DNA of 56,438 nt from Dehalococcoidia bacterium (GTDB lineage: Bacteria > Chloroflexota > Dehalococcoidia > GIF9 > AB-539-J10): assembly GCA_014859205.1 (NCBI GenBank), contig JACUUR010000002.1:1-56438 (forward strand), given 5' to 3'. A program made the position numbers and the translations under genes. Under the pieces are notes generated by a model that had not been told where the DNA came from, made no database searches, and saw only the letters and a list, made by a program, of their open reading frames with translations. This document shows positions 13,271 to 52,930 of the stretch, in pieces. How positions within the stretch are numbered: position 1 is the stretch's first letter; the number at the start of each line of letters is the position of its first letter.

Positions 13271-13352
13271 GCATTTGACTTCGGGCTCCTGAAAAGCTAA
13301 GCTATTGGCCGTTATCGCCGTGTGTGCCGCACCACCTGAAAGCTCAAAGATA

Positions 13353-14048: not shown

Positions 14049-14115
14049 TGCGGGCCACAGCATGCGGGCAGTATAGAATGCTCCGCAACAAGATTGAGAA
14101 CGCTTCCCGCACATG

Positions 14116-14979: not shown

Positions 14980-15054
14980 CTACTTACGGAGGGCTGCTTT
15001 CCAGCCCTGACCTCCCGGTTGTCCTCACAATCCGCGAACTGCGGTCAGGGCCAA

Positions 15055-27184: not shown

Positions 27185-27418
27185 ATGCCGAGAGGAGCGA
27201 TAATAGTTGATAAGGAACGGTGCAAGGGTTGCGGGCTATGCCTGGTTTTCTGCCCCCAAGACGTGCTCGCCTTTTCGGGAGAGCACAACCGCAGCAGCTA
27301 CGATGTGGTTTGCATGAAACATCCCGAACAATGTACCGGCTGCGGATTCTGCGCCCAGACATGTCCCGACATAGCGATTGAGGTCTACCGGCAGAAGAAG
27401 CCTAAGGATGGGAGCTGA
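27185..27418 (+). CDS. 2-oxoacid:ferredoxin oxidoreductase delta subunit (2x[4Fe-4S] ferredoxin)
   Basis: 77 aa. CKGCGLCLVFCP and CTGCGFCAQTCP motifs. Confidence 0.8.
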   Translation: MPRGAIIVDKERCKGCGLCLVFCPQDVLAFSGEHNRSSYDVVCMKHPEQCTGCGFCAQTCPDIAIEVYRQKKPKDGS

Positions 27419-32905: not shown

Positions 32906-33508
32906 ATGACATCTATCATTCTGGCAGGTGGGAGAAGCACCAGGCTGGGCCGGAGCAAGGCTCTCCAAGTTGTCGGGGACAGAACCCTGATACAGTGGGT
33001 TGTCGACCGCCTAGCCGTCCTGAGCACGGAGATCATCATAGCAACTGCCCATGGAGAGGCCATCCCCTGCTCGTCGCCCGTGACCATGAGAACTGTGGCG
33101 GATGTCTACCCCGACGGGGGGCCGCTGGGAGGGATCTACACCGGGCTGGCCTCTTCGTCTGGCGCCCGGGCCATCATAGTTGGCTGCGACACGCCCTTTC
33201 TGAACGTCGAGCTACTTGCTCATATGATGCGGATCTCACCGGAGTTCGACGTTGTGGTTCCGCGGGTAGGAGACAAGGTAGAGCCGCTATGCGCGGTGTA
33301 CTCCAGGCGCTGTATGGACACCATAAGGGGCCTGCTGGATGAGAACGAACTGAGAATCACCACGCTTTTTGGCCTGGTGAGCGTCAGATACATCGAGGTG
33401 TCTGAGATAGACACGTTCGATCCGGAGCACCTGAGCTTCCTCAATGCCAACAGCCAGACCGACCTGGAGAGGGCCAGAAGGCTGGCAGCCGAAAGAGGCC
33501 TGAGCTAG
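32906..33508 (+). CDS. mobA: Molybdenum cofactor guanylyltransferase
   Basis: 200 aa. IILAGGRSTRLGRSKA nucleotide-binding motif and VGCDTPFL. Its stop overlaps the convergent mvhD stop within CTAG (33505-33508). Confidence 0.8.
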   Translation: MTSIILAGGRSTRLGRSKALQVVGDRTLIQWVVDRLAVLSTEIIIATAHGEAIPCSSPVTMRTVADVYPDGGPLGGIYTGLASSSGARAIIVGCDTPFLNVELLAHMMRISPEFDVVVPRVGDKVEPLCAVYSRRCMDTIRGLLDENELRITTLFGLVSVRYIEVSEIDTFDPEHLSFLNANSQTDLERARRLAAERGLS

Positions 33509-33939
33509 GACTGACTGCCTACGGTGTCCCGCAAGGGACTGGGGCCGAGCTTCTTGATCTCCGAGACGAAATCGGTCACCACCTGGGCAAACCTCTGCCC
33601 CTCGGCGGCCGAGACCCACTCCAGCCTCAGCCGCTCGGACTCGATTCCCAGCTCAAGCAGCAGCTTCTTCAGCAGCAGCATCCTGCGCCGGGTCTTGTAG
33701 TTCCCCTCTAGATAGTGACAATCCCTGGGGTGGCATCCCCCTACAAACACGCCGTCAGCTCCCAAACGAAAGGCGTGCAGGATATACAGGGGGTCAACCG
33801 CTCCCGAACACATAAGCCTTATCATCCTCAAGTTGGGCGGATATTGAAGCCGGCTTATTCCGGCAAGGTCAGCCCCCGCATATGCGCACCAATTGCAGCA
33901 GAAGCCGATAATCTTGGGCTCAAAACTATCCGTCATCAT
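33505..33939 (-). CDS. mvhD: MvhD/FlpD-like [2Fe-2S] electron-transfer protein (copy 2)
   Basis: 144 aa. IIGFCCNWCAYAGADLAG...RLMCSGAV...VFVGGCHPRDCHY is the MvhD signature. ATG at 33937-33939 overlaps the hdrL TGA (ATGATGA). The track ORF start at 34143 is an extension. Confidence 0.85.
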   Translation of the reverse strand: MMTDSFEPKIIGFCCNWCAYAGADLAGISRLQYPPNLRMIRLMCSGAVDPLYILHAFRLGADGVFVGGCHPRDCHYLEGNYKTRRRMLLLKKLLLELGIESERLRLEWVSAAEGQRFAQVVTDFVSEIKKLGPSPLRDTVGSQS

Positions 33940-36900
33940 ACTCCTGCCAGAGCCGCACTGAGCGCAGCTGAGATCTCCTCCCTCGTGAATCCTCGCTGCT
34001 GGACAGCCCCGGACGGACAGGCAGCGCAGCAGGTGCCGCAGCCCTTGCATAGAGCCGCATTCACCACAGAGACCCCCTTCTCCCGATCCACAGCGATCGC
34101 TACGTAAGGACACATGGCCTCGCATATGCCGCAACCGGTACATATCTTCTCGTTCACAGAAGCAACAATGCCTTCTCCGGTTACGGCATCCTTGACCAGC
34201 ACTAGAGAGGCGCGGGCAGCAGCAGCCTTAGCCTGGGCAATGCTTTCCTCGATGGTCTTCGGTGCGTGGGCCAGTCCACAGACAAACACCCCGTCGGTGG
34301 CGAAGTCAACCGGGCGCAGCTTCACATGCGCCTCCAGGAAGAAGCCGTCCTGGTTCAGAGGCACCTTGTACAGCATGGCCAGTTCGTTGGCTTCAGGCGA
34401 AGGAACCATGGCTGCACTCAGCGCCAGGATATCGGCATCGATCACCACGTTCTGCCCCAGCACAGGGTCATAGGTCTCGACACCAAGCAGGAACCTGCTG
34501 TCCCTTCTTCTCTGACTGACCCGGGGCTTGTTCTCCAGATCATAGCGCACGAAGATGACACCCTTCTGCCTCGCCTCCTCATAGTACTTCTCGCTGAACC
34601 CGTAAGTTCGCACATCTCGATAGAGGATGTAGATGTTCATGTCGGGCTTCATCTCTTTGAGCCTCAGGGCATTGTTGATTGCCCTGTTGCAGCACACCCT
34701 GGAGCAGTAGGGTCGGTTCTCATCCCGGCAGCCAACGCACTGGATCATAACCAGGTTGTCGCAGTTCACGATATCAGGAGCCTTCTTCAGCAGCTCTTCC
34801 TCAAGCTCAAGCTGAGTAAGCACCCTCGGGTCTTTGCCATACAGATACTCCTCGGGTTTGTACTCCTCCGCTCCGGTGGCGATTATGGTCACGCCGTGTT
34901 CCAGCTTCTCCACCACCCTGCCGCGGTACCTCATGACCTCTGTCGTGAAGTTGCCCACATACCCGTGGACATCGACTATCCAGGTGTCGGTATACACCCT
35001 GATCCTGGGATGCTCCTGCACCTTGTGTATAAGCCCATCCAGAAACTCCTGAATATCCTCACCCTCAAGGCCGAAGTGTATTCTTCTGGTTATGCCGCCC
35101 AGCACGTTGCTTCTCTCGATCAGATCAACCTCGAATCCCTGTTCTGCCAATGTCAGTGCGCTGGTCATCCCGGCTACGCCTCCCCCGATAACCAACGCCC
35201 GGTGGTTGACCGGCAAGGCCACCGGTGTGAGCGGTTCGATCAACGCCGCCTTAGCCACCGCCATTCTCACCAGGTCCTCTGCCTTTACGGTCGCTTCTTC
35301 CTGCTCATGCATATGTACCCATGAACACTGGTCCCGGATGTTCGCCATCTCGAACAGATACGGGTTCAGCCCGGCCTGCCTGATTGTCTCCCTGAACATG
35401 GGCTCATGCGTCCTGGGAGTACAGGAAGCCACCACAACCCTGTTCAGCCTGTATTCCTCAATGGCTTTCTTGATCTTCTCCTGTGTGTCCTGAGAGCAGG
35501 TGAAGAGATTTCTTTCGGCATATTCCACGTTAGGCAGGGTCCTGGCATAGTCGGCGACCTCGGGCACATCCAGGTATCCGCCAATGTTAACTCCGCAGTG
35601 ACAGACGAAAACACCGATTCTGGGCTCCTCCCCGCTAACATCTCTCTCAGGGGGATACTCCTTTGTTCTGGTCAATGTCCCTCTCGCCGGAGCCAGCAAG
35701 GCAGAGATCTCCCCCGCCGCCGCACTTGCCTGCACTACAGTCTCAGGAATGTCCTTGGGAGCCGAGAAAGCTCCGCAGACGAATATCCCGGGCTGGGAAG
35801 TCGTCATGGGCAGGAACGGTTGTGTCTGGCAGAAACCGTACGGGTTGATCTGAACACCGCCCTTCCTGGCAAGCTCCACCAGTTCCGGCGAAGACTGAAA
35901 GCCTACAGAAAGGACCACCATGCTGAATCGCTCGGTCGTCACGGTGCCGTCCTCGGTGGCGAACTTGACCACCAGGTCCCCGCTGCTGTCGGCCGATTCG
36001 ATGCTGTAGACCTTCGATCTGACGAAGTTGATTCCGCTTTCTTCCTTGGCGCGCTCATAGTACTTGTCGAAATCCTTGCCATGAGTCCTGATATCCATGA
36101 AAAAGATGGTGATGTCTAGAGGCACGGTGCTATGCTCCTTGGCAATCACAGCCTCCTTGATGGCGTAGGTACAACAAACGGAAGAGCAGTAAGGCCGGTT
36201 ATGACTTGGATCCCTGGAACCGACGCACTGTATGAATGCTATCCTTTGCGGTGGCGTCAAGTCTGAGGGCCTGAGCAAGGTCCCCTGGTAAGGACCAGTG
36301 GCGCCCAGGATGCGCTCAAACTCGATGCTGTTCACCACATTAGGATATTTCCGATAGCCAAGCTCATATTGAACCGAAGGGTCAAAAAGATCATACCCGG
36401 GGGCGAACACGACAGCGCCCACGTTCAGGTCCAGGTATTCATCCTGCATCTCGTATTCGATGGCCTGCGCGGTGCAGCGCGCCGCACACTCCTGGCACTG
36501 AAAACAACCCTCGATCTGTGAGGCCAGGCATCTCTCAGCCTCTTCTCTGGCCTCGGAGACGGAATAACCCAGCTCAACCTCTTCAAAGCTCTTGATCCGT
36601 TCCTCCGGGTCCAGCTCTTTCATAGGAACCCTGTTTCTGGAAGGCACACGCTGCCTCAGCGCCGCAAGCTCTACCTCACTGAGCTTCTTCAGTTGCCTCT
36701 CCTCCTCCTTAGGCGACAGAGGTTCTCCCCTCAGATATTCATCTATGGAACGGGCCGCCTGCTTACCGGCCGCTATAGCCTCAATAGCGATGGATGGTCC
36801 GCTGACTGCATCACCACCGGCAAAAATCCCATCCACGCTACTGGCCAGAGCCCCATCCGTTACGATCGTTCCCCCGCGAGAAATCTGTATGCCGGACTCC

Positions 36901-38411
36901 CGAGCGAAATCAAGAATCGAGGCTTGCCCCAGGGCAGTGATAACGGTATCAACGTCGACCATGAACTCCGAACCTGGAACCGCGACAGGGCGGCGACGTC
37001 CGCTGGCATCAGGCTCGCCGAGTTCCATCCTGACGCACTCCATCCCTGAGGTCCTCCCGCCTTCAATGATGATTCCGGTGGGGTTGGTCAGAAACACCAT
37101 CTCGATCCCCTCTTCCTCAGCACCCCTTACCTCCGAAGGCGTGGCCGGCATCTCGTCCCTTGAGCGCCGATAGATAACCTTTACGTCGGACCCCAAACGC
37201 CTGGCCACCCTGGCAGCATCAACCGCGGTATTGCCTCCACCCACTACCGCCACCCTCTGTCCCAGTTCAACCTCCTCGCCCATGTTGGCACGCCACAGGA
37301 AGTCGATAGCGTTGATAACCTGCGGTGAATCGCCTCCAGGGATGTCAAGCTTCGTACCACCATGAGCGCCGGTGGCGATGAACACGGCCTCATGGGATGT
37401 TCTAAGCGCCTCCAGTTGTATGTCCTCTCCTATTCTGCTGTTTGTCCTTATCTCGACTCCCAGTCTTCTTATGTAGTCTATCTCTTTGTTGAGTATAGCT
37501 TTGGGCAGGCGATACTCGGGAATGCCCACCCTGAGCATGCCTCCCGGTTCCGGCATGGCCTCGAATATGGTTACTTCATAGCCTGCCAGGGCAAGGTCGT
37601 GGGCTGCGGCCAGGCCTGCCGGACCGCTGCCGATAATGGCGATCTTCCTCCCGTTTCTGGTGATCTCGGGCACCTCGACAGCATCGATATCGATCTGGTC
37701 GGTGACAAATCTCTTCAGTTCCCTGATTGCTATAGAGTCATCCATCTGCGCCCGATTGCAGGCCTTCTCACAGGGGGCATAGCAGACGCGGCCGCAAACA
37801 ATAGGGAGCGGATTGGTGCTTCTTATCAGGTCATACGCTTCCTTGATCTTGCCGTCGGCGATCAACCTGGCATAGCCCTGAATATTCATGTGAATAGGGC
37901 AGGCGTCGCTGCAGGCTGCCTTACAGGGCCTGTCAGCCCGCCTGTCGATCACATAAGTGTTGGGCACAGATTGTAGGAAGGGGGTGTAAATCGCCTTGCG
38001 CTGCACCAAGCCCTGGTCGTACTCGTTCTTCATCGTAACCGGGCAACCCTGAGCACATAGGCCACATCCCGTGCATTTCGCTCCATCAACGAACCTGGCC
38101 TTCTTCTTCACCGATACTATGAAGTTGCCCGGCCGCCCCTTGATATCCAGCAGCTCAGAGTAGGTCAGAAGCTCAATATTGAGGTGTCTGCCGCACTCCA
38201 CCAGTTTGGGCGATAGAATACACATGGAGCAATCGTTGGTGGGGAAGGTCTTGTCCAGTTGGGCCATGACTCCGCCGATGGAGGGAGTCCTCTCCACGAG
38301 GTAGACATAGTATCCAGACTCAGCAAGGTCCAGCGATGTCTGAATACCCCCTATGCCTCCCCCTACGACAAGAACCGCTCCTACTGTGCCGTTTCCGTCT
38401 TGCTTATCCAT
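33936..38411 (-). CDS. HdrL-like giant flavoprotein: HdrA FAD unit with inserted GltD/NfnB-like NAD(P)H module, fused to a second complete HdrA unit
   Basis: 1491 aa. aa 1-160 are the HdrA core (VVGGGIGGIQ, SIGGVMAQLDKTFPTNDCSMCIL, CTGCGLCAQGCP). aa ~160-565 are GltD-like (CGRVCYAPCEKAC, IAIIGSGPAGL, VAVVGGGNTAVD, FAGGDAV). aa ~630-905 are the rest of HdrA (IQCVGSRD, YCSSVCC). aa ~928-1491 are a second HdrA (IGVFVCHCGVNIGG, ANIRDQCSWVH, VIGGGVAGM, IQCVGCRD, YCSRVCC, CTGCGICEAMCP, CKGCGTCCAACP). Confidence 0.85.
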   Translation of the reverse strand: MDKQDGNGTVGAVLVVGGGIGGIQTSLDLAESGYYVYLVERTPSIGGVMAQLDKTFPTNDCSMCILSPKLVECGRHLNIELLTYSELLDIKGRPGNFIVSVKKKARFVDGAKCTGCGLCAQGCPVTMKNEYDQGLVQRKAIYTPFLQSVPNTYVIDRRADRPCKAACSDACPIHMNIQGYARLIADGKIKEAYDLIRSTNPLPIVCGRVCYAPCEKACNRAQMDDSIAIRELKRFVTDQIDIDAVEVPEITRNGRKIAIIGSGPAGLAAAHDLALAGYEVTIFEAMPEPGGMLRVGIPEYRLPKAILNKEIDYIRRLGVEIRTNSRIGEDIQLEALRTSHEAVFIATGAHGGTKLDIPGGDSPQVINAIDFLWRANMGEEVELGQRVAVVGGGNTAVDAARVARRLGSDVKVIYRRSRDEMPATPSEVRGAEEEGIEMVFLTNPTGIIIEGGRTSGMECVRMELGEPDASGRRRPVAVPGSEFMVDVDTVITALGQASILDFARESGIQISRGGTIVTDGALASSVDGIFAGGDAVSGPSIAIEAIAAGKQAARSIDEYLRGEPLSPKEEERQLKKLSEVELAALRQRVPSRNRVPMKELDPEERIKSFEEVELGYSVSEAREEAERCLASQIEGCFQCQECAARCTAQAIEYEMQDEYLDLNVGAVVFAPGYDLFDPSVQYELGYRKYPNVVNSIEFERILGATGPYQGTLLRPSDLTPPQRIAFIQCVGSRDPSHNRPYCSSVCCTYAIKEAVIAKEHSTVPLDITIFFMDIRTHGKDFDKYYERAKEESGINFVRSKVYSIESADSSGDLVVKFATEDGTVTTERFSMVVLSVGFQSSPELVELARKGGVQINPYGFCQTQPFLPMTTSQPGIFVCGAFSAPKDIPETVVQASAAAGEISALLAPARGTLTRTKEYPPERDVSGEEPRIGVFVCHCGVNIGGYLDVPEVADYARTLPNVEYAERNLFTCSQDTQEKIKKAIEEYRLNRVVVASCTPRTHEPMFRETIRQAGLNPYLFEMANIRDQCSWVHMHEQEEATVKAEDLVRMAVAKAALIEPLTPVALPVNHRALVIGGGVAGMTSALTLAEQGFEVDLIERSNVLGGITRRIHFGLEGEDIQEFLDGLIHKVQEHPRIRVYTDTWIVDVHGYVGNFTTEVMRYRGRVVEKLEHGVTIIATGAEEYKPEEYLYGKDPRVLTQLELEEELLKKAPDIVNCDNLVMIQCVGCRDENRPYCSRVCCNRAINNALRLKEMKPDMNIYILYRDVRTYGFSEKYYEEARQKGVIFVRYDLENKPRVSQRRRDSRFLLGVETYDPVLGQNVVIDADILALSAAMVPSPEANELAMLYKVPLNQDGFFLEAHVKLRPVDFATDGVFVCGLAHAPKTIEESIAQAKAAAARASLVLVKDAVTGEGIVASVNEKICTGCGICEAMCPYVAIAVDREKGVSVVNAALCKGCGTCCAACPSGAVQQRGFTREEISAALSAALAGV

Positions 38412-38426
38412 AACAATACCTTCACA

Positions 38427-38894
38427 TTACAGCTTCTGCAGCACCTTCTTAGCCAGTTCGGCGGGCTCGAAATCGCCTCCCTGGGCTCTCGAGTCGGCGA
38501 CGCCGCTAACCATCTGGTGACGCAGCTTCTGGCAGAATACGTCGATCTCCCTGACCTTCTCCGGAAAGGACGGGGCTACGTACCCTTCTCTGACTGCCAT
38601 GCCTCTCAAAGCCTTCATGATATCGGCAAAATCAACGTTCTGAGGGCAGTGGGCCTGGCAGCTGTAACACTGAATGCAGAACCAGATCGTATCTGACGAC
38701 AAAACCTCTCTCCTCAACCCCAGAAGAACCATCCGGATTATGCGACGGGGGTTAAACTTCTGGTCTATGTCAGAAACCGGACAGCTGGCTGTACAGAGAC
38801 CACAGGCGAAGCAAAGCCTGATCCTCTCTCCTCCAGGCTCATCGGCAACGTCGTATTTGAATCTGGTGTCCAGTTCGTTCAAAGCTACAGTCAT
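38427..38894 (-). CDS. HdrC-like 2x[4Fe-4S] ferredoxin-domain protein
   Basis: 155 aa. CFACGLCTASCP and CIQCYSCQAHCP in the HdrC-type helical arrangement. AAGGAGG RBS. Confidence 0.7.
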   Translation of the reverse strand: MTVALNELDTRFKYDVADEPGGERIRLCFACGLCTASCPVSDIDQKFNPRRIIRMVLLGLRREVLSSDTIWFCIQCYSCQAHCPQNVDFADIMKALRGMAVREGYVAPSFPEKVREIDVFCQKLRHQMVSGVADSRAQGGDFEPAELAKKVLQKL

Positions 38895-38928
38895 CTTCGC
38901 CTCCTTGATGCCGTTCAGGCCGGAACCA

Positions 38929-39822
38929 CTACGCTAGTCCGGCGGCCTCCAGTATCTCCGGTACCCTGTCCTCCCGTCCGATAAACATGATGTGTACCCC
39001 ATCACAGACGTTCTGTTCCTTGATCTGCCTTATCAGGCGGGCAGCCATCTCTATGCCCTTGGCGACGCCGGTGCCCTTGGGGGCCTCGGCCAGTTCATCG
39101 ATCAGGGACTGAGGGATGAAGATGCCGGGAACATTCTCGTTCATATATGAGGCCATCTTCACGCCGATGACGGGTACTATGCCCCCCAGTATCTTTACGT
39201 CTTGATCGATCTTGCGGACGAACTCCGTGAACCTCTTGAGTTCATCGAGATCATAGACAGCCTGGGTCTGGATGAAATCAACTCCCGCTCTGAGCTTCTT
39301 CTCAACCTTGATGAGCTGGGGTTCAAGTGGATCCGACGAAGGCGAAGCAGATGTGCCGATACAGAAATCAACCGCCCCGTCCAGCTCATTGCCTGCCATG
39401 TCCTTGCCTGAACTCAGAGTATGTACAAGATGAATGAGCTGCACCGAATCGAGGTCGAACACCTGTTTTGCCTCTTTGTGGTCACCTACGTCAACCGAGT
39501 CGCCGGTGAGACAGAGCACGTTACTGATACCCCGGGAATAGGCAAACAGGAGATCCGCCTGAATGGCCAGACGATTCCTGTCGCGGCAGGTTATCTGCAG
39601 CACCGGCTCGCCACCGTGTTCTTTAATCAGAAGACAAACCCCCACCGATGGATAACGCATCACCGAGCTCTGATTGTCGGTCACATTCAGGGCGTCGACC
39701 TTATCCTTGAGAAGCTCAATATGCTCTATAGTCTTGGCCACATTGGAGCCTTTTCCAGGCGCGGCCTCAGCAGTTACCACGAATTTCTTTGTCTTGAGAG
39801 TTTCCCTAAAAGGCGTTGCCAT
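38929..39822 (-). CDS. metF: Methylenetetrahydrofolate reductase, MetF (MetV-associated type)
   Basis: 297 aa. FVVTAEAAPGKG, ALNVTDN, ITCRDRNR and LCLTGD motifs of the MTHFR TIM barrel. Confidence 0.85.
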   Translation of the reverse strand: MATPFRETLKTKKFVVTAEAAPGKGSNVAKTIEHIELLKDKVDALNVTDNQSSVMRYPSVGVCLLIKEHGGEPVLQITCRDRNRLAIQADLLFAYSRGISNVLCLTGDSVDVGDHKEAKQVFDLDSVQLIHLVHTLSSGKDMAGNELDGAVDFCIGTSASPSSDPLEPQLIKVEKKLRAGVDFIQTQAVYDLDELKRFTEFVRKIDQDVKILGGIVPVIGVKMASYMNENVPGIFIPQSLIDELAEAPKGTGVAKGIEMAARLIRQIKEQNVCDGVHIMFIGREDRVPEILEAAGLA

Positions 39823-39833
39823 TCATCACCCCC

Positions 39834-40493
39834 TTAAGCTCTGGCCGCCTGGACCCTGCCGGGCCTTTTGACCGCCCGGTAATTCTTGGGCGAGTAATAC
39901 TCACGCATCAGGTCAAGTCTACCCTGCTTCTCCAGCCTGCGATATATAAGCACCCAGCCACAATCCTTATCAGGGTCTATCTCGCACTTACCACCCTTCC
40001 TGGTACCGCCGCAGGGACCGTTCAGCAGCCCCTTGGCACAACGAACCATAGGGCAGACCCCCCCGGTTCGATCCAGCAGGCAGTCACCACAGGCGCCGCA
40101 CATCTCCACCCAAAGCCCCTCTGTCTCCGGCATGCCGATGAAGGTGGTGTTGACTGCGGGCAGAACTGGCTTGTCCTCAAACCGTTCAGCCATAGTCTGT
40201 ACTCCCGCCCCGCAGGCCAGCGAGAGCACTGCGTCAACCTGAGCCACCTGCTCGCTGAGCTCTTCTATCATCTCTTTCTCACACTGCCGCTCAACCGTTG
40301 CTTCGGATGTTACGATTTCATTTCCCTCTGCGTCGCGGGCCAGTCTCAGTTCTGAGGCGAGTATCCCTACCTCCTTCTCCCCGCCGGCCCAACACACTGC
40401 CACGCAGGTTGCACAACCTGCCACAAGCACTCTCTTGTAAGGGGCTAACTCCTGTCTGATCTCTTCCAGTGACTTCCGTTCAGCGATTATCAT
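39834..40493 (-). CDS. metV: MetV, MTHFR C-terminal-domain (zinc-ribbon / Fe-S) small subunit
   Basis: Cys-rich CGACGDCLLDRTGGVCPMVRCAKGLLNGPCGGTRKGGKCE...CGW is the MTHFR_C signature. ATG at 40493 with GGGAGG upstream. Overlaps the mvhD end by 14 nt. Confidence 0.75.
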   Translation of the reverse strand: MIIAERKSLEEIRQELAPYKRVLVAGCATCVAVCWAGGEKEVGILASELRLARDAEGNEIVTSEATVERQCEKEMIEELSEQVAQVDAVLSLACGAGVQTMAERFEDKPVLPAVNTTFIGMPETEGLWVEMCGACGDCLLDRTGGVCPMVRCAKGLLNGPCGGTRKGGKCEIDPDKDCGWVLIYRRLEKQGRLDLMREYYSPKNYRAVKRPGRVQAARA

Positions 40494-40884
40494 CTTGCCT
40501 CCCTGGACTCTGTGATGTTGCCTTTGTTGTCTCTTCTGTAGCTGCGACAAATTTATGGGGCGCATTCGGACTGAGGTTGACCATCACTGCAGATCTGCCC
40601 TCCAACCCGATCTCTTTCAATAGCATCTGGCAGTGTTTCACCCTTTCACCTGCTCTTATGTTCCCGGTAATATGATGACAAGCTCCATCTTCGCATCCCA
40701 TTACCAGCACCGCCGAGGCGCCCTTCTCAAACGCCCGCAGGATATGGATGACGTCCACCCGGCCGGCGCAGGGAACACGAACTATCCGCACCGCCTCCGG
40801 GTAATGAAGTCCCAGTTTTCCCGCCAGGTCGGCGGCCGGATAGGCAGAATGCTGACAACAGAAAGCTACAATAGCTCCCTTCAT
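40480..40884 (-). CDS. mvhD: MvhD/FlpD-like [2Fe-2S] protein (copy 1)
   Basis: 134 aa. IVAFCCQHSAYPAADLAG...VPCAGRV...VLVMGCEDGACHH. ATG overlaps the upstream stop as ATGA. The track ORF start at 41223 is an antisense-frame extension. Confidence 0.8.
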   Translation of the reverse strand: MKGAIVAFCCQHSAYPAADLAGKLGLHYPEAVRIVRVPCAGRVDVIHILRAFEKGASAVLVMGCEDGACHHITGNIRAGERVKHCQMLLKEIGLEGRSAVMVNLSPNAPHKFVAATEETTKATSQSPGRQDDNR

Positions 40885-42527
40885 CCTTCTCCCAAGGCCT
40901 CGATCTGGGCCAGCATCTGATCGTCTCTGTAGTCCTGAAACTCGATTGCCTTGGCCGGACAGATAGCGACACAAATGCCACAGGCGTAGCACGCCAGATC
41001 CGATATAGCGGCCACTTCCTTGCCACCATCTGTCCCCATCAACTGGATTGCACCGTGTGGACAGACACGGATGCAGGTTAGGCAAGCTACGCACTTCTGC
41101 GGGTCTGCCTTGACTCTCTCGATCTCCACCGCAATCGTGCCGGCAGACAGCAGTTCCTGTATGCTGACAACAGCGCAGGAGATATCGGCCAACAGCCGGC
41201 CGACGTCGGACTGGCCGCGGCACTCGCCCACAAAGAACAACCCCCGCTTCTCGGAAGCTACGGGATAGAGGTGCACGTTTTCATCCTGGTAGAAGCCCCG
41301 GGCGTCCAGGCGAACACCGAGTAGAGAACCCAGAAGCCGTGTCCCTTCAGATGGAAACAGGAGTTCCTCCGCCACCAGAAGCTCGCAGTTGACAACGGCG
41401 TCTTCACCCAGGAGGACATCTCTGGCCTCCACCGCTATCCGTTCGTTATCCGTGCTAACCTTCGGAGGACCGGAACACTTCACGAACACGACCCCACAAT
41501 CCCTGGCCTCCCGATACAGACGCTCTGCTCCCTGGCTATCAACCTTGACATCCTTGCAGAACACGTATACTTCACTCCCCCACGCTCTACGGGCTGCCAG
41601 AGCATTACTGAGGCTGGCAAGCGTGGAAAAGCGAGAGCTATCGTCCACAAAATCGAACACGAAACCTATGGCATCTGGCTTCGTGCCCGACAACGGGGCG
41701 CCCAGCATATCCCGAAGCTGCTCCTGGGAGACAATATTCATTCCGGAAACCGCCTCGCCCTTAGTTCCCGTTATTGGCGCCAGAGCAGACCCGGTACGGA
41801 AGCCGGTGGCAAGCACTATCGCCCCGAACTTGCGGCAGCGATTCTCCCCGTTCCTGCTCATGGTTACAATGAAGTCTCCCATCGTCCCCCTTACTGCCAC
41901 TATCCGGGCAGAGTTGATCATCTCGATGTTCTCGTCTCGCTCCGCCGCAGCTACCATTGAACTCATGTCTAATCGACACAAGCTATCCAATTCCTGATCC
42001 CCGCCTCCTGCGGTCCCTGCGTCTACAAGCAGAGTTGTACACACTCCCGTCGAAGAAAGCCGTAGCGCCGTGCTGAATGCCGAAAACCCACCACCAACCA
42101 CCAAAACGCCCCTTTCCACAGGCAGATCCTTCTTCTCTACCGGATGGAGCAGTCTCCCTCCGTTTACAGCCATCCTGACGAGTTCCACAGCCTTTGCCGT
42201 AACGTCACCTTCATGAGCCCAGGAGCATTGTTCCCTTATGTTTGCCATAGAGAGGAGATGCTCATTCAGGCCGGCATCTTCCAGTGCCCGCCATAGAACA
42301 TGTTCCTCGAACTCAGGAGAACATGCCGCAACAACCACCCTATCTATGTTCTCCTCCTTGATACGGGAGACCATCTGCTCCCTTCCTGCCTTGCTGCAGA
42401 GATTGGAGCTCAAGTTGACGCAGGCGACGCCGGGCATCTCCGTCACCCTGGCCGCAACGGCATCAAAATCAATATTCTTCATGCCTCCGCCGCAGTTGCA
42501 GAGGAAGACGCCTATCCTTGTTTCCAT
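40881..42527 (-). CDS. HdrA-like protein, second-unit type (N-terminal Cys domain + FAD-like domain + C-terminal 2x[4Fe-4S] ferredoxin)
   Basis: 548 aa. IGVFLCNCGGG, VVAACSPEF, ANIREQCSWAH, VVGGGFSA, CVACLTCIRVCP and CYACGICVAICP. Collinear with aa ~928-1491 of the 1491-aa protein. Confidence 0.75.
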   Translation of the reverse strand: METRIGVFLCNCGGGMKNIDFDAVAARVTEMPGVACVNLSSNLCSKAGREQMVSRIKEENIDRVVVAACSPEFEEHVLWRALEDAGLNEHLLSMANIREQCSWAHEGDVTAKAVELVRMAVNGGRLLHPVEKKDLPVERGVLVVGGGFSAFSTALRLSSTGVCTTLLVDAGTAGGGDQELDSLCRLDMSSMVAAAERDENIEMINSARIVAVRGTMGDFIVTMSRNGENRCRKFGAIVLATGFRTGSALAPITGTKGEAVSGMNIVSQEQLRDMLGAPLSGTKPDAIGFVFDFVDDSSRFSTLASLSNALAARRAWGSEVYVFCKDVKVDSQGAERLYREARDCGVVFVKCSGPPKVSTDNERIAVEARDVLLGEDAVVNCELLVAEELLFPSEGTRLLGSLLGVRLDARGFYQDENVHLYPVASEKRGLFFVGECRGQSDVGRLLADISCAVVSIQELLSAGTIAVEIERVKADPQKCVACLTCIRVCPHGAIQLMGTDGGKEVAAISDLACYACGICVAICPAKAIEFQDYRDDQMLAQIEALGEG

Positions 42528-42542
42528 CAATCGTTCCCCTGA

Positions 42543-43811
42543 TCAGCTATCGCAAGGGCTCGCAGCACACTCCAGCATCTCCAGTGCACTGGAGGCAGCA
42601 GCCATCCCATGAGCCACGGCATCAGGTATGTCCCTGGGGCCCTGACAGGTCCCGGCAAGGAAGATCCCTTTCACGGTGGTCTCATTCGAGCCGAACGGAT
42701 CCGCCGTAGCGTAGAATCCGTCGTCGGCCATATTGATGCCCAGGGTCCGGGCCAAGTCCCAGGAGTTCCTACTGGGGGAAATGCCCACAGAAAGGACCAC
42801 CAGGTCAAAGATGTCCCGGCAGACCCTGGTCTGGGAGATATCCTCAAACTTGACCTCTAGCTCTCCGGACGCAGTCTGCAGGATTTCGACGGGCACGCCC
42901 CGCACAAACCGTATGCTCCCCTTGTATTCCTCGTAAAACTGAGCAAAGCCTTTCCCTGCAGTCTGCAGGTCGATGTAGAAAATGGTTACCTCGGTGTCGG
43001 GACTGCGATGCTTGATAAGCCCTCCAAGCTTCATAGCATACTTACAGCACACATGTGAGCAATAACCATGATGCTTGTCTCTGGAGCCGACACACTGAAC
43101 GAAGGCAACCCTCCGGGGCTCCTCCCCGTTACTCCGAAGTCTTAGTTGGCCCTCGCGGCTCAGAATGTGCTCCACATCCAGGCCTGTCAGCACGTTGGGG
43201 TATCTGCCGTAACCCAGGGAGCCTTTCTCCCTGGCGTCAAAGACATCAAAGCCGGTGGCGACAATAACGGCCCCGACGTTCAACTCCTGCCCCTTTGCCT
43301 TGCGCTCGAGATCAATGGCCTCAGTGGGGCAGGTCTCACGACAAAGACTGCATTGTTGCCCGTTGAAGCGCAGACAACGTCCTTCATCAAGAACGTAGCA
43401 GAAGGGTGTCGCCTCGGCGGGAGGCGCATAGATCGCCACGGGGTCAGCGGGGCAGACCTCAGCGCAGAGGCCACAGGCTATACATCTCTCTGCATCGACA
43501 TACCCCGGCTGCTGAGTTATCTCAACGCGAAAGCTACCGGCCTCGCCGCTGAGCCTCTTCACTGTGGAGTTGGTCAGGAGCCTGATTCGAGGGTGGAGTA
43601 GCGCCTCTTTGATCTTGTCGGGCACCACACAGGCAGAACACCTGACACAGATATCCGTTGCCTTACAGCAAAAGCGGGCACTGTGTCCGCCAACCACCGC
43701 CTCCTTCTCCACCAAATATACGCTGACGCCGGCTTTGGCCAACTCCAGAGCAGAAGAAATGCCTGATATGCCTGAACCGATAACTAGAGCGTTCCTGCTG
43801 TCGGAGTCCAC
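42543..43811 (-). CDS. HdrA-like FAD/Fe-S protein, first-unit type (no GltD insertion)
   Basis: 422 aa. VIGSGISGISSALELAKAG, CIACGLCAEVCP, CSLCRETCP, VQCVGSRD, YCSHVCC. GTG start. Ends in TGA, in frame with the next gene. Confidence 0.8.
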   Translation of the reverse strand: MDSDSRNALVIGSGISGISSALELAKAGVSVYLVEKEAVVGGHSARFCCKATDICVRCSACVVPDKIKEALLHPRIRLLTNSTVKRLSGEAGSFRVEITQQPGYVDAERCIACGLCAEVCPADPVAIYAPPAEATPFCYVLDEGRCLRFNGQQCSLCRETCPTEAIDLERKAKGQELNVGAVIVATGFDVFDAREKGSLGYGRYPNVLTGLDVEHILSREGQLRLRSNGEEPRRVAFVQCVGSRDKHHGYCSHVCCKYAMKLGGLIKHRSPDTEVTIFYIDLQTAGKGFAQFYEEYKGSIRFVRGVPVEILQTASGELEVKFEDISQTRVCRDIFDLVVLSVGISPSRNSWDLARTLGINMADDGFYATADPFGSNETTVKGIFLAGTCQGPRDIPDAVAHGMAAASSALEMLECAASPCDS

Positions 43812-45796: not shown

Positions 45797-45923
45797 GGGC
45801 CGCCGAACATTATAGGCGCTTTTGGATGTAAATGCAAAACTATGAAGGCAGTGCAGTGCCCAGGTGTTGCCCGAAACCCGTCGTTCTGGCATACTGTATC
45901 GAAATCCCGCCGGGAGTTCGAAC

Positions 45924-46847
45924 ATGAAGGTAGACAGCAATCTAGCCAGAGTACTGGAGGCAGGTCACTTCGCCGTTACTGCCGAGGTCAGTCCCCCCCA
46001 GAACACAGAACTCCAAGGCATCCGTGAGAAGGCGTCCATGATCAAGGGATTTGCCGACGCCGTCAACATACCTGATGGACAGGCAGCGGTGGTAGCGATG
46101 GCAAGCTGGGCGGGTTGCCTCGTAGCTAGCGAGGAGGGCCTGGACCCCATCATCCACATGACCTGCCGGGACCGAAACCGGATCGCCCTGCAAATGGACG
46201 TCCTGGCGGCGTCCGCCTTCGGCATCGCCAACATACTCTGCCTATCAGGGGATCCCATATCCTTTGGCAGCCATCCTCAGGCAGCACCCGTCTTCGACCT
46301 GGATTCTATCCAGTTGATCAGGACCGTGAAGGGACTCAGAGACGAGAGGAAGTTCGATAACGGAGAACTCATCGTGGGAGCAGAGCCCAGGCTTTTCATC
46401 GGGGCAGCCATAGACCCCTTCGTACGTCCACTGGACTCCGCAGTGGAACGCCTCAAGGCCAAGGTTGAGGCCGGAGCTGACTTCATCCAGACCCAGCCTG
46501 TGTACAACATGGAAGGATTCAGAACCTGGATGGAGTTGGTCCGAGCAGAGAGATTGCACAAGGACGTCAAGATCCTGGCCGGCCTCACTCCGATAACGTC
46601 TCTGGCAGCGGCAAGATACATGAAGATGAAGGTCAGCGGTGTGGACATACCCGACATGATCATTGAACGCCTCAAGAGTGCCCGTAACAAGGAAGAGGCT
46701 GCAGAGGAGGGACTGAAGATTGTGGTGGAAACCATAGAGCAGCTAAGGCAACTCGAGGGGGTGGCCGGCGTCCACATCATGACCCTGCAGCGAGAGGAGC
46801 TTATACCCAGGATCTGCAGCGCTGCAGGGCTTCACCCGCGCCCCTGA
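45924..46847 (+). CDS. metF: Methylenetetrahydrofolate reductase paralogue (stand-alone MetF)
   Basis: 307 aa. FAVTAEVSPPQ, AVNIPDG, MTCRDRNR and LCLSGD. GGGAG RBS 7 nt upstream of the ATG at 45924. Confidence 0.8.
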   Translation: MKVDSNLARVLEAGHFAVTAEVSPPQNTELQGIREKASMIKGFADAVNIPDGQAAVVAMASWAGCLVASEEGLDPIIHMTCRDRNRIALQMDVLAASAFGIANILCLSGDPISFGSHPQAAPVFDLDSIQLIRTVKGLRDERKFDNGELIVGAEPRLFIGAAIDPFVRPLDSAVERLKAKVEAGADFIQTQPVYNMEGFRTWMELVRAERLHKDVKILAGLTPITSLAAARYMKMKVSGVDIPDMIIERLKSARNKEEAAEEGLKIVVETIEQLRQLEGVAGVHIMTLQREELIPRICSAAGLHPRP

Positions 46848-46908: not shown

Positions 46909-49872
46909 CTACCACTTCTCCTGTGTTAGCCGCAACACCAGCCAGGTCCTCAGGCGTTCGTCCAGCTTGCCAACCCATGACTCTATCTTGCGTATATCTC
47001 CGCTCATGAGGGCGGCTCTCTCCTCCGAAGTCAGTTCGTATTCCTTCAGCGCCTCGGCCGGGTTCTCAGCCAATCGGGCCAGGAAGGCGTTGTCCCGGGC
47101 AGCTCTGTCAAGCACCCCCAGCACCGCATTCACCGCAGATACCTTGTACTCGGGGATCTTGGCCACAGGATCAAGGGCATCATTGGTAAGGATGTTTACC
47201 GCTGCCTCATGCCAGTGGAAAGGCATGAACACAACTCCGGGAGGCGATTTCTCGGTGATATGAACCGGCGTCTCAACTCTACCCCTCTTGGACGAAACCA
47301 CTACCTCGTCACCCTCAACAAGCCCCAGCTTGAGCGCGTCGTCGGGATGCATTTCCATTGCTCCGCCCGGACGCAGTTGACTTAGCACGTTAGCCCTGCG
47401 GCTCATGGTGCCTGTATGCCAGTGCTCCAGTATACGTCCGGTAGTGAGAACCAGAGGGTACCCCTTGGATACGGATTCGGCCGGCGGGGCATAACTCACC
47501 GCGTGGAACTTGCCCTTGCCTCGGGCAAAACCGTCCCGATAGAGGAACGGAGTGCCGGGATGCAGGGCATCCGGACAGGGCCATTGCAGGCCATCCCGAC
47601 CGAGACGGTCGAAGCTGACGCCGCCGTAGATAGGAGCTAGCGAGGCGATTTCCTCCATTATCTGGTCGGCACTCCGGTAGTCGAACGGCTCTCCCATCTT
47701 CTCGGCCAGGGAGCAGATGATCTGCCAATCAGGCCTGGCCTCGCCGGGAGGCATAAGCGCCTGCCGCACTTTCTGAATCCGCCTCTCCGTGTTGGTGAAG
47801 GTCCCATCCTTCTCTGCGAAGGAAGCGGCAGGAAACACCACATCAGCCATCCAACCGGTCTCGGACAGGAATATATCCTGAACCAGGAGGAAGTCGAGTT
47901 TGCCCATAGCCTGCCTGGCATGCTCAAGGTGAGGCTCGCTTAGCATGGGGTTCTCACCCATCACATACAGCCCTCTGATGTCTCCCCGGAGCACGCCGTT
48001 GGCAACCTCGGTAACCGTCACTCCAGCGCGGTCGCTTAGTTTGCGTCCCCAGGCGCATTCGAACTTCGTCCTGACGGCGGGGTCATCGACTCTTTGATAA
48101 CCGGGATAGACATTAGGCAGCGCTCCCATATCGCAGGCGCCCTGGACATTGTTCTGCCCCCGGAGAGGGCAGAATCCGGTGCCCTCCCTGCCCATGTTGC
48201 CGGTGAGTAACAGCAGGTTTGCCACACTCTTGACGTTGTCTGTGCCAGTCGTGTGCTGGGTTATGCCCATGCCGTAGAGAATGCAGGCGCTGTTGGCCTC
48301 TCCAAACAGCCGGGCTGCTGCCTCTATATCGGCCTGGCGCACCCCGGTTACAGACTCCGCGGTGGCAAGATCATACCCTTCCAGAAGCTGCCGTAATTCG
48401 TCGAAGCCCTCGGTACGCTCCCTGATGAAGTCCTTATCCTCAAGACCTTCTCTGAGGATTACGTGCATCAGGCCGTTGATGAGAGCAACGTCTGTGCCCG
48501 GCCTGTGGGCGAGTCTGACGCTGGCATATTCGCTGAGTTCGATGGAGCGAGGGTCAGCCACTATGAGCTTGGCTCCTGCCAACCTCACCCTTCGCTTGAT
48601 CATCGAGCCAATGATGGGATGACATTCAGTAGGATTGGAGCCGATCACGAAGAAGAGATCGGTCTTCTCGAAATCGGAATAAGAATTGGTCATCGCGCCC
48701 TGTCCGAAGGCGGCGATGCCCCCAACCACAGTAGAGGCATGGCACAGTCGGGCGCAGTGGTCGATGTTGTTGGTGCCTATCACGGCACGCACGAATTTCT
48801 GCATGACGTAATTATCTTCGTTGGTGCACTTTGCCGAGCTTAAGGCAGCGATGCTATCGGGTCCGTAAGCTTGCTTGAGACTTAGCAGCCTTTCTGCCGC
48901 CAGGCCAAGCGCCTCCTCCCAGGTAGCTTCACGGAATATCTCCTGTACCCGTCCGTTGTGACCTGCCTCCCGGGCGACGCCTGGCAAGCGGATCAACGGC
49001 GTCTTCAGTCTTTCAGGATGATTCACGAAATCATATCCCCAGCGTCCTTTTACACACAGGCTTCCCCTGTTGGCCGGCCCTTCGGAGTCGCCGCGCACCG
49101 ACACGATCCTGTTGTCTCGAACTCCCAGGTACATGGAGCAGCCCACTCCACAGTAGGGGCAAATGGTCTTGACCTCCTCAGCGGGTGGCTTCTCCCACTT
49201 GGGCGCCAGCGCCCCGGTAGGACATCGCGCCACACATTCACCACAAGACCTGCAAATCGACTCGGCGATCGGCCTGTCACCAAACGTGGCTACCTTTGCC
49301 GAGCTTCCCCGGAAGGCCAGATCAACAGCGCCGACCACGGCTATTTCGTGGCACGCCCGTATGCACCGGGCGCAGAGGATGCACTTGTTCGGGTCTCGCG
49401 TGAAGGCGGGATGGCTTCTATCCAGAGGTAGCACCTGAGTGCTTCTCCGTAACCGGTCCATATGCTCCTGCTCAACGCCTAGATATCGAGCAACCTTAAG
49501 GAGTTCACAGTCCTGGTTTCTGGTACAAGTTATACAATCCCCGTGATGATTGGCACTGATAAGCTCCATAGTCGTTCGCCGTGACCGAGTAACCCTGGGC
49601 GTGTCAGAATGCACCACCATGCCATCAGTGGCTGGTGTAGTGCACGAGCTAACCAGACCCCGCATGCCCTCGATCTCAACGACGCACAGGCGGCAACCTC
49701 CGTAAGGCTTGAGGTCAGGGTCATGACACAGCGTGGGGATGTAGATGCCAGCTTGCAGGGCCGCTTCCAGCACCGTAGCTCCAGCTCTGGCTATGACCTC
49801 GCTGTCATTGATCGTCAGCCTGATGACCTCCGCCTTTGCGTGATGGGTTTGCGCCGCGATAACTGTAGCCAT
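46909..49872 (-). CDS. fdhA: Formate dehydrogenase catalytic subunit, Cys-type, with N-terminal NuoG-like Fe-S domains and a ~70-aa C-terminal helical extension
   Basis: N-terminal 2Fe-2S (CRLCVVEI) and CILCARCIRAC, CRSCGECVARCP, CPYCGVGC clusters. Active-site HCARLCHAST has TGC at 48742-48744 where selenoproteins carry TGA. ATG at 49872 with AAGGAGG upstream. C-terminal tail ...FLARLAENPAEALKEYELTSEERAAL...QEKW. Confidence 0.9.
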   Translation of the reverse strand: MATVIAAQTHHAKAEVIRLTINDSEVIARAGATVLEAALQAGIYIPTLCHDPDLKPYGGCRLCVVEIEGMRGLVSSCTTPATDGMVVHSDTPRVTRSRRTTMELISANHHGDCITCTRNQDCELLKVARYLGVEQEHMDRLRRSTQVLPLDRSHPAFTRDPNKCILCARCIRACHEIAVVGAVDLAFRGSSAKVATFGDRPIAESICRSCGECVARCPTGALAPKWEKPPAEEVKTICPYCGVGCSMYLGVRDNRIVSVRGDSEGPANRGSLCVKGRWGYDFVNHPERLKTPLIRLPGVAREAGHNGRVQEIFREATWEEALGLAAERLLSLKQAYGPDSIAALSSAKCTNEDNYVMQKFVRAVIGTNNIDHCARLCHASTVVGGIAAFGQGAMTNSYSDFEKTDLFFVIGSNPTECHPIIGSMIKRRVRLAGAKLIVADPRSIELSEYASVRLAHRPGTDVALINGLMHVILREGLEDKDFIRERTEGFDELRQLLEGYDLATAESVTGVRQADIEAAARLFGEANSACILYGMGITQHTTGTDNVKSVANLLLLTGNMGREGTGFCPLRGQNNVQGACDMGALPNVYPGYQRVDDPAVRTKFECAWGRKLSDRAGVTVTEVANGVLRGDIRGLYVMGENPMLSEPHLEHARQAMGKLDFLLVQDIFLSETGWMADVVFPAASFAEKDGTFTNTERRIQKVRQALMPPGEARPDWQIICSLAEKMGEPFDYRSADQIMEEIASLAPIYGGVSFDRLGRDGLQWPCPDALHPGTPFLYRDGFARGKGKFHAVSYAPPAESVSKGYPLVLTTGRILEHWHTGTMSRRANVLSQLRPGGAMEMHPDDALKLGLVEGDEVVVSSKRGRVETPVHITEKSPPGVVFMPFHWHEAAVNILTNDALDPVAKIPEYKVSAVNAVLGVLDRAARDNAFLARLAENPAEALKEYELTSEERAALMSGDIRKIESWVGKLDERLRTWLVLRLTQEKW

Positions 49873-49888
49873 TGCTGCCTCCTTGTCG

Positions 49889-52800: not shown

Positions 52801-52930
52801 CTTCCTGACGCACCCCGTCCTCGAGTGCCCTGCGGATATCCTCCGACCTGGAGGACGTACAGCCTGTGCCCTGACAGACAAGCACCCTCATGCGCCCCCT
52901 GGAATCGACGCCCTGAATTCTCTCGATCAC
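49889..52930 (-). CDS. NuoF/HydB-like NAD(P)H-FMN subunit fused to a C-terminal GltD/NfnB-like FAD-NAD(P)H module
   Basis: 1013 aa. N-terminal thioredoxin-like 2Fe-2S (VCQGTGC...CHGFC). NuoF motifs [24 protein letters not shown]. aa ~540-945 are GltD-like ([43 protein letters not shown]). GTG start with GGAGG upstream, overlapping the nuoE stop. Confidence 0.85.
   Translation of the reverse strand: [1013 protein letters not shown]

Follow-up and report, generated by a model that had tools for sequence, protein, structure and literature searches.

A train of eight genes encoding a putative methylene-tetrahydrofolate (THF) reductase of the heterodisulfide reductase (Hdr) type was located on the minus strand (43811-33505) of a 56,438-nt stretch of DNA from a Dehalococcoidia bacterium (contig JACUUR010000002.1; the whole stretch analysed is hereafter called the window), using ORF calls together with Pfam, NCBIfam, and PDB sequence searches. 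The genes are, in order, hdrA1, hdrA2, mvhD1, metV, metF, hdrC, an hdrL-like gene (hereafter hdrL), and mvhD2. To judge from the genes that the train contains, from how well it is conserved, and from its Wood-Ljungdahl neighbourhoods, its products very likely act as a methylene-THF/methyl-THF oxidoreductase of the Wood-Ljungdahl pathway. Judged by its domains, the enzyme is probably an HdrB-less flavin/Fe-S methylene-THF reductase of the Hdr type, which would use NAD(P)H and, probably, ferredoxin through electron bifurcation or confurcation. Relative to the known type III methylene-THF reductases (MTHFRs), what is new is a MetFV enzyme without HdrB and with two Hdr-type modules, one of which bears an NAD(P)H-binding domain.

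The eight genes are tightly packed, with ATGA overlaps or gaps of at most 34 nt, in agreement with an earlier reading of the letters alone (the sequence-only reading). The hdrA2-mvhD1 (40881-40884) and hdrL-mvhD2 junctions are ATGA overlaps, and mvhD1 overlaps metV by 14 nt. The remaining genes are separated by 11 nt (metV-metF), 34 nt (metF-hdrC), and 15 nt (hdrC-hdrL), and hdrA1 is followed by 15 nt up to the ATG of hdrA2 or by 12 nt up to a TTG one codon upstream. A purine-rich Shine-Dalgarno-like motif was found 5' of seven of the eight starts, and the motif at hdrA1 was weak; the same reading had claimed one for every gene. Scanning of 32.5-47 kb for promoters and terminators detected no intergenic terminator within the train, and the counts were not above those of shuffled sequences, a result that is uninformative since the promoter types of the host are unknown. 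Rfam and tRNA scans of the window gave no matches.

The train reaches further upstream than hdrA1. Regulator genes at 45940-43850, which encode a cNMP-binding histidine kinase and two CheY-like receivers, lie on the same strand and either overlap one another or stand within 38 nt of hdrA1. They were retained with the train in all related loci whose contigs extend far enough, and are thus part of the conserved unit. Such strict conservation hints at dedicated regulation of a redox enzyme. The coordinates of all these genes are listed in Table 1.

Table 1. Genes of the train, its upstream regulators, and neighbouring features in the window
Feature	Position (nt)	Strand	Product and supporting match
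hdrA1	42543..43811	-	422 aa; Pfam Pyr_redox_2 and Fer4
hdrA2	40881..42527	-	548 aa from ATG; HdrA-type by Pfam
mvhD1	40480..40884	-	134 aa; MvhD/FlpD [2Fe-2S] adaptor; PF02662 2e-39
metV	39834..40493	-	219 aa; Cys-rich small subunit of acetogen-type MTHFR; PF12225 1e-34 to 2e-34
metF	38929..39822	-	297 aa; methylene-THF reductase catalytic subunit; PF02219 9e-39, full profile
hdrC	38427..38894	-	155 aa; Fer4_8/Fer4_17; PDB HdrC 2e-23
hdrL-like	33936..38411	-	1491 aa; three Pyr_redox_2 stretches (2e-63) and Fer4_20 7e-20
mvhD2	33505..33939	-	144 aa; second MvhD; PF02662 3e-56
cNMP-binding histidine kinase	45940-44618	-	Pfam
CheY-like single-domain response regulators, two	44643-44248, 44251-43850	-	Pfam
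metF2	45864..46847	+	327 aa; PF02219 2e-43; MTHFR paralogue without its own metV
formate dehydrogenase set	46909..53445	-	Pfam; kept upstream of the train in several loci

The composition put forward by the sequence-only reading was borne out by the Pfam, NCBIfam, and PDB matches: MetFV is accompanied by two HdrA systems, each of which has its own MvhD, by a single HdrC, and by a built-in NAD(P)H module. The profiles it had named as a check were found for MvhD (PF02662, twice), MetV (PF12225), and MetF (PF02219), and no match to the CCG domain of HdrB (PF02754) was obtained in the window.

The two HdrA proteins of the train divide the domains of a methanogen HdrA between them. HdrA1 aligns to positions 142-562 of methanogen HdrA (PDB, E 9e-96) and consists of the HdrA core only, that is, a thioredoxin reductase (TrxR)-like FAD domain with the inserted 2x[4Fe-4S] ferredoxin domain, lacking both the N-terminal domain and the C-terminal ferredoxin domain. 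It carries the FAD-proximal cluster motif in the form CVGSRD..CSHVCC. In addition, a stretch of five cysteines (C48/C49, C55, C58, and C61 in FCCKATDICVRCSAC, with the pattern FCCK-x5-C-x2-C-x2-C; window 43628-43670) was kept in 18-20 of 20 sequences at a site where canonical HdrA has only DCSxC, and the HdrA1-like protein of a relative (locus L040), 39% identical, has it too. This stretch may provide an Fe-S site, either additional or moved from elsewhere, that makes up for the loss of the cluster in HdrA2.

HdrA2 aligns to positions 1-236 and 411-649 of the PDB HdrA. Besides the N-terminal Cys domain of HdrA and the C-terminal 2x[4Fe-4S] ferredoxin domain, it has a TrxR-like domain that is degenerate and has no ferredoxin domain inserted in it. 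In the alignment, the FAD-proximal CxGxRD..CSxxCC motif is missing and GxGxxA is retained. The motif was found in none of 120 close relatives and in none of 29 distant ones (standalone or MvhD-fused, 32-42% identity), and one or two copies of it are kept in double-HdrA proteins. The N-domain cysteines and the eight C-terminal cysteines of HdrA2 are invariant across orthologues. Since the motif is missing throughout these relatives, the HdrA2 type is an old and diverse subfamily rather than a decaying gene. Neither HdrA1 nor HdrA2 singly has the four domains of an HdrA polypeptide (N-domain, TrxR, inserted ferredoxin, and C-terminal ferredoxin), and both scored far below the cut-off of the NCBIfam HdrA models.

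The HdrL protein contains the same parts in fused form (PDB matches to HdrA at 5e-204 and to NfnB at 4e-105). Its N-module is an HdrA core (aa 1-160 and about 600-910), and in its C-module (aa 929-1491) an HdrA N-domain and a C-terminal ferredoxin domain accompany a TrxR domain whose cluster motif is intact. Accordingly, a TrxR-like FAD domain with both GxGxxG and the cluster motif is present in HdrA1 and in both HdrL modules but not in HdrA2. The N-module is interrupted by an NfnB/GltD-like NAD(P)H-FAD-2x[4Fe-4S] module (aa about 160-600; roughly nt 36612-37934), which separates the first 4-Cys motif of the inserted ferredoxin domain (C113-C123) from the second (C636-C646). The insert is complete, as TIGR01316 gltA matched at 2e-121 over positions 34-449 of 449 (below the cut-off of the model), Pyr_redox_2 was covered from 2 to 291 of 291, and Fer4_20 as well as FAD and NAD(P)H Rossmann folds were recognised by Pfam. 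The VIYRRSRDEMPA stretch that follows its second Rossmann fold may be NADPH-like, in the manner of NfnB/GltD sequences.

HdrA1 matches HdrL at 23-172 and 638-906 (40% identity for 638-906), and HdrA2 is colinear with HdrL 929-1480 (27% identity), indicating that HdrA1 and HdrA2 together are a split, NfnB-less paralogue of HdrL. Each Hdr module is therefore predicted to be an asymmetric pseudo-dimer, the halves of which carry complementary domains and would stand in for the HdrA homodimer of methanogens. The FAD, its proximal cluster motif, and the inserted ferredoxin domain belong to one half, which is HdrA1 in the split module and the N-module in HdrL. The other half, HdrA2 or the C-module of HdrL, contributes the cluster domain at the N-terminus and the ferredoxin domain at the C-terminus, and is followed by MvhD. 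The sequence-only reading had described two different HdrA systems, and two are indeed present, although they are paralogues of one another and each is a pseudo-dimer, not a simple HdrA. It had also described two FAD bifurcation-type modules; because the cluster motif of HdrA2 is lost, these are probably two single-circuit modules at most.

In the methanogen HdrABC-MvhAGD structure, electrons reportedly cross between the HdrA protomers, from MvhD through the C-terminal ferredoxin domain of one HdrA to the FAD-proximal cluster and FAD of the other. From this FAD they are said to leave either through the N-domain cluster to HdrC or through the inserted ferredoxin domain to ferredoxin. By the logic of that circuit, each pseudo-dimer of the train would keep exactly one circuit.

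A single complex, the assignment of its arms, and bifurcation are what we infer from homology and synteny, and the reaction may proceed as follows. The hydride of NAD(P)H would be transferred to the NfnB-like FAD of HdrL, from which electrons would pass singly via Fe-S clusters to the HdrA-type FAD of HdrL. One branch would lead from there to MetV and the flavin of MetF, where methylene-THF would be reduced (about -200 mV), and the other would lead to the free inserted ferredoxin domain of HdrA1, where ferredoxin would be reduced. The ferredoxin arm of HdrL would be hard-wired to the NAD(P)H (or formate) module, and that of HdrA1 would be free. MvhD would probably dock MetV on the Hdr module in place of the methanogen hydrogenase, and HdrC, being without HdrB, would serve as a pure electron wire, between the modules or to MetV. 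The net reaction would be 2 NAD(P)H + CH2-THF + Fd(ox) -> 2 NAD(P)+ + CH3-THF + Fd(red); it would be reversible, with confurcation when the pathway runs oxidatively. In a more specific and tentative version, which may hold but which we would not expect to, all eight proteins would form one supercomplex with two single-circuit HdrA pseudo-dimers in series via HdrC, NAD(P)H or formate entering, CH2-THF reached via MvhD-MetV-MetF, and ferredoxin served at HdrA1.

Thirteen cysteines of MetV were kept in 30-32 of 32 orthologues, and five cysteines are conserved in each of the paralogues MvhD1 and MvhD2. MetF matched PDB MTHFRs at about 1e-10. A sequence search of the PDB returned no relative of MetV, and hence no MetFV-Hdr structure is to be found there. 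An in-frame fusion of HdrA2 and MvhD1 was observed in 6 of 21 related loci (L004, L005, L007, L013, L015, and L027) and in 66 of the 120 closest protein clusters (P0007 and others), the fused protein being 670-678 aa long; these natural fusions argue for direct physical contact between the two. In every lineage examined, that of the Dehalococcoidia, Anaerolineae (L029), and loci L036 and L040 included, mvhD lies directly upstream of metV or overlaps it, which fits the proposed docking of MetV by MvhD.

The conservation of the train was surveyed by scanning species-representative genomes with MetV. The scan yielded 33 loci, about 28 of them in metagenome-assembled genomes labelled Dehalococcoidia or Chloroflexota; two train-bearing loci labelled Deltaproteobacteria or Acidobacteriota are probably binning errors. 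The order kinase-response regulator-response regulator-hdrA1-hdrA2-mvhD1-metV-metF-hdrC-hdrL-mvhD2 was kept in all of the about 28 species-level loci, as far as the contigs reach, so that the arrangement is not due to chance. The flanks are also shared, with mobA convergent downstream and metF2 and the formate dehydrogenase (FDH) genes upstream. The same arrangement was seen in independent metagenome contigs (L034, L035, and L038). Amino-acid identity to the window ranged from 53 to 94% per gene, with the exception of HdrA2 in L026 (42%); MetF, MetV, and MvhD2 were the best conserved (76-94%), and HdrA2 was the least (53-70% in the other loci). The cofactor-ligand cysteines are invariant across orthologues, and about 40 Fe-S Cys ligands are maintained. 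In one locus, hdrA2 (L010:7986-9609) and hdrL (12152-16556) each consist of two adjacent pieces in different frames, which are probably assembly frameshifts, not pseudogenes.

The uniqueness implied by the sequence-only reading was overstated, as the operon is very common in metagenomes, where the HdrA2 orthologue alone forms more than 840 clusters at 90% identity. A profile search meant to find MetV relatives outside the Dehalococcoidia yielded more than 7,900 MetV-like proteins, and the best 120, which were those listed, all belong to the same clade. The exact sequence of MetF had no entry among public assemblies. The source annotations are generic ('heterodisulfide reductase subunit A', 'ferredoxin', and 'methylenetetrahydrofolate reductase C-terminal domain-containing protein').

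Relatives with other arrangements were also recovered. The Anaerolineae loci L028 and L029 encode a double HdrA without NfnB (1033 aa), followed by mvhD, metV, metF, and an HdrC-HdrB fusion (PF02754 3e-19). In L029, fchA-folD-fhs stand directly downstream, and from these neighbours it follows that the cluster belongs to the methyl branch. L036 and L037 (5.18-Mb long-read genome) contain hdrC (243 aa), a CCG protein (135 aa), an MTHFR, a double HdrA (1007 aa), mvhD, metV, and an MTHFR. In L040 (6969-16811), CODH/ACS and acsE are followed by an HdrA1-like protein (343 aa, without the inserted ferredoxin), an HdrA2-like protein, mvhD, metV, and two MTHFRs; further on come a 219-aa protein whose sequence suggests that it is embedded in a membrane, a small Fe-S protein and a cytochrome c3, and another MetV-MTHFR pair. 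Neither CCG nor HdrL was present in the L040 locus, which may be a membrane-linked variant. Its small Fe-S protein was considered as an HdrC orthologue and rejected, since it has no BLAST similarity to the HdrC of the window and its neighbours are the 219-aa membrane-like protein and cytochrome c3. In L039, folD follows an HdrA2-MvhD fusion.

These arrangements bear on the main alternative reading, in which the train encodes two co-regulated but unjoined enzymes. HdrA1-HdrA2-MvhD1-MetV-MetF, perhaps with HdrC, would be the reductase, and HdrL-MvhD2, perhaps with HdrC, would keep the redox carriers of the pathway in balance as a separate NAD(P)H:ferredoxin or NAD(P)H:X oxidoreductase. Either type of module suffices elsewhere, as the HdrA1-like/HdrA2-like/MvhD/MetV/MetF set of L040 is without HdrL and the double HdrA-MvhD-MetV-MetF sets of L029 and L036 are without HdrA1 and HdrA2. 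Moreover, double-HdrA proteins form a large family of many length classes, and the HdrA2-like proteins of L041 stand in a setting without MTHFR. We nevertheless consider two separate enzymes unlikely, given that in about 28 species metVF-hdrC invariably stands between the two modules, within a single train whose genes overlap without interruption, that there is one HdrC for two modules, and that HdrL-MvhD2 alone would have no obvious high-potential acceptor.

Variation was also found at the electron-entry site. In two sister species within the clade of the window (L027:11989-18273 and L009:4358-9524), the NfnB insert of HdrL is swapped for an FdhA cassette at exactly the same position. HdrL is represented there by three ORFs, namely a 358-aa HdrA N-part with polyferredoxin, a separate 679-aa FdhA (Mo/W-bisPGD type, 54% identical to the FdhA of the window), and a 1054-aa remainder with a new N-terminal extension of roughly 130 aa. 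The replacement of NfnB by FdhA is a swap of the donor module, and in these species formate would take the place of NAD(P)H, entering through FdhA at the same site. In other Dehalococcoidales (L033:3378-6387 and L032:513-3662), genes for the small and large subunits of a [NiFe] hydrogenase were observed directly upstream of a distant metV. These metV genes are 37-38% identical to that of the window and lie near cdhD, and the contigs stop before any downstream metF; the arrangement suggests a hydrogenase-linked MetV variant.

The absence of HdrB was examined by three independent tests. A six-frame search of the 56-kb window for the CCG tripeptide revealed no CCG domain, Pfam scans of about 48 ORFs across the window gave no PF02754, and the regular expression CX(25-50)CC[GSAT]X(25-50)CXXC together with tblastn using the HdrC-HdrB fusion as a query retrieved nothing besides the Anaerolineae HdrCB, all in line with what the sequence-only reading had stated. 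In about 28 Dehalococcoidia-type loci, no CCG domain was present within 10 kb of the cluster. The positive controls L028 and L029 were recovered by both the regular expression and tblastn, showing that these were able to find a CCG domain, and the CCG protein of L036 was also detected. Thus HdrB, which with its two CCG domains is one of the criteria of the type III MTHFR, was found neither in the window nor within +/-10 kb of the orthologous loci, and its absence is a conserved, derived trait of a whole Dehalococcoidia clade at this cluster. The N-domain of MetV was considered as a cryptic HdrB/CCG-like fold on account of its 'GCATC' and 'LACGAG' motifs, but this idea found no support: Pfam at E<=10 gave no CCG match, and Foldseek against the PDB gave no match at E<=1e-3 and only generic flavodoxin-like folds with a weak AlphaFold2 model (mean pLDDT 56).

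By its matches, the product of hdrC is a true HdrC homologue. Its residues 8-110 aligned to 15-115 of the PDB HdrC, and it has two CX2CX2CX3C motifs, the eight cysteines of which were kept in 20 of 20 sequences, followed by a short C-terminal tail. It matched TIGR03290 at 5e-27 with 94.7 bits against a cut-off of 160, and is accordingly a relative, not an equivalog. With 155 aa, it is shorter than the methanogen HdrC chains (183-191 aa) and the HdrC of L036 (243 aa).

A conventional Moorella-type MetFV-HdrABC-MvhD with hdrB encoded elsewhere in the genome would agree with the retention of HdrC with its eight invariant cysteines, with the CCG proteins held in the clusters of the Anaerolineae and L036 relatives, and with the extent of the search (56 kb here and +/-10 kb in relatives). 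We regard it as improbable, however, because no CCG was found in any Dehalococcoidia locus despite strict conservation of the remaining cluster, HdrC is shortened and alignable over residues 8-110 only, and HdrB is fused to HdrC in the Chloroflexota relatives that have it, so that the loss of CCG takes no more than one deletion. A non-bifurcating enzyme, in which NAD(P)H would reduce methylene-THF over a long Fe-S/flavin wire and the duplicated Hdr parts would be structural relics or regulatory, is very improbable. In its favour, the reduction of CH2-THF by NAD(P)H is exergonic unaided, non-bifurcating HdrA homologues exist (PDB 6tjr was among the matches), and HdrA2 has lost the cluster motif and evolves fastest in the operon (53-70% identity, 42% in L026, against about 80-90% for MetF and for MetV), but HdrA1 and the HdrL N-module keep every core feature of HdrA, the Fe-S ligands are conserved across species, and an intact, free inserted ferredoxin domain is kept, the sole known role of which is ferredoxin reduction.

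Several points weigh against an HdrB-less, ferredoxin-linked complex as proposed here. Complex formation, stoichiometry, electron direction, and bifurcation are read from homology and synteny, and since two MvhD stand beside one MetV and one HdrC, several topologies are possible, of which the proposed arm assignment is one. Bifurcation from NADH to ferredoxin is thermodynamically about neutral at standard potentials, as in discussions of the Moorella enzyme. The pairing of a single module type with MetFV in L040 and in L029/L036 means that the two modules of the train might not cooperate. The docking of MetV by MvhD draws no structural support from the AlphaFold model of MetV, given its pLDDT, and the range of the HdrB search leaves room for a distal hdrB.

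The closest described system is the MetFV-HdrABC-MvhD 'type III' MTHFR, which has reportedly been described from Moorella thermoacetica and Sporomusa ovata. As in that system, MetF, MetV, an HdrA-type flavoprotein, HdrC, and MvhD are encoded together, mvhD is directly upstream of metV, and the context is that of the Wood-Ljungdahl pathway. Unlike it, the train has no HdrB, two asymmetric HdrA pseudo-dimers (one split, one fused), two MvhD, and an NAD(P)H site formed by a spliced-in NfnB/GltD module, and its host is an uncultured member of the Chloroflexota. With the methanogen MvhAGD-HdrABC and Fdh-Hdr complexes (PDB 5odc, 7bkb, 8rvu, and 9sfi), the train shares the HdrA domain set and homologous HdrC and MvhD, and with Fdh-Hdr also a formate-dehydrogenase variant, here in the sister species. 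It differs from them in having a heterodimer or fusion with complementary halves, no HdrB or heterodisulfide site, no hydrogenase, and a donor module inserted in the ferredoxin-domain arm instead of being attached through MvhD. HdrL matches the whole NfnB/GltD unit, of which fused forms are also known (PDB 4ylf, 5jca, 9n5u, 8oh5, and 9bov), over residues about 160-600; unlike in NfnAB, the module has no NfnA partner and is inserted in the HdrA ferredoxin domain.

Fused double HdrA proteins of at least 1000 aa, some with an NAD(P)H-binding insert, are known from class II benzoyl-CoA reductase (BamE) and, under the name HdrL, from sulfate reducers (Desulfobacterium autotrophicum). The present HdrL resembles them in carrying two HdrA modules in one polypeptide and differs in standing in a metVF operon alongside an unfused paralogous pair. 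QmoABC likewise does without HdrB. It combines a QmoA-like short HdrA core with a QmoB-like protein, in which a longer HdrA is joined to an MvhD-like domain, and with an Fe-S protein of the HdrC kind. Membership in this family was rejected, since there is no membrane (HdrE-like) haem-b domain, no apr genes occur in the window, and the partner is MetFV; neither qmoA nor qmoB models were among the 25 best NCBIfam matches listed for HdrA1 or HdrA2, and HdrC matched the qmoC model (3e-18) at positions 4-100 of 360 only. Heterodimeric or tandem HdrA paralogues reportedly occur in anaerobic methanotrophic (ANME) archaea. Complementary domain loss in two paralogues, giving an asymmetric dimer with one functional circuit, is common to both cases, whereas the present pair is bacterial, linked to MetFV, and accompanied by a second, fused copy with NfnB. 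To our knowledge, no enzyme of such composition has been characterised.

The remaining Wood-Ljungdahl context of the window consists of the FDH set and a second MTHFR. The latter, metF2, is divergent from the kinase gene, is 38% identical to metF, and is a clade-wide conserved neighbour of the train. The MetF of the Anaerolineae cluster is nearer to metF2 (50%) than to the MetF within the train, and the same is true of the MetFs of the L040 cluster. The FDH set comprises FdhA with a NuoG-like 2Fe-2S/4Fe-4S N-terminus (999 aa), a NuoF-GltD/NfnB-like fusion (1013 aa), and NuoE (172 aa). In L034, its equivalent is a single 1349-aa FDH-NfnB-like fusion beside a third MTHFR and a DUF3786 gene. Genes for a three-subunit 2-oxoacid:ferredoxin oxidoreductase (POR_N/PFOR_II, TPP_enzyme_C, and POR gamma) were observed at 27378-29761 (+) of the window, and this neighbour is consistent with a ferredoxin-based metabolism.

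No redox step of the Wood-Ljungdahl pathway is more exergonic than that of methylene-THF reductase. For the Hdr-linked ('type III') enzymes, the train bears on two questions, the physiological electron carriers and the role of HdrB. If the products of the train form one supercomplex, HdrB would be dispensable for bifurcation of the Hdr type, and ferredoxin would be the long-sought second acceptor of Hdr-linked methylene-THF reductases. A natural HdrB-free version with a recognisable NAD(P)H or formate entry and one free ferredoxin-type exit would offer a defined stoichiometry, and structural studies would gain a minimal set of parts. How Hdr-type bifurcating modules evolve is illustrated by the asymmetric pair of HdrA1 and HdrA2 and by the exchange of NfnB and FdhA cassettes, and the operon could help show how the MetFV step is linked to energy conservation. 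The Dehalococcoidia of sediment and groundwater, in which the operon is very abundant, are thought to run the Wood-Ljungdahl pathway under extreme energy limitation, and the energy balance of the operon therefore bears on their way of living.

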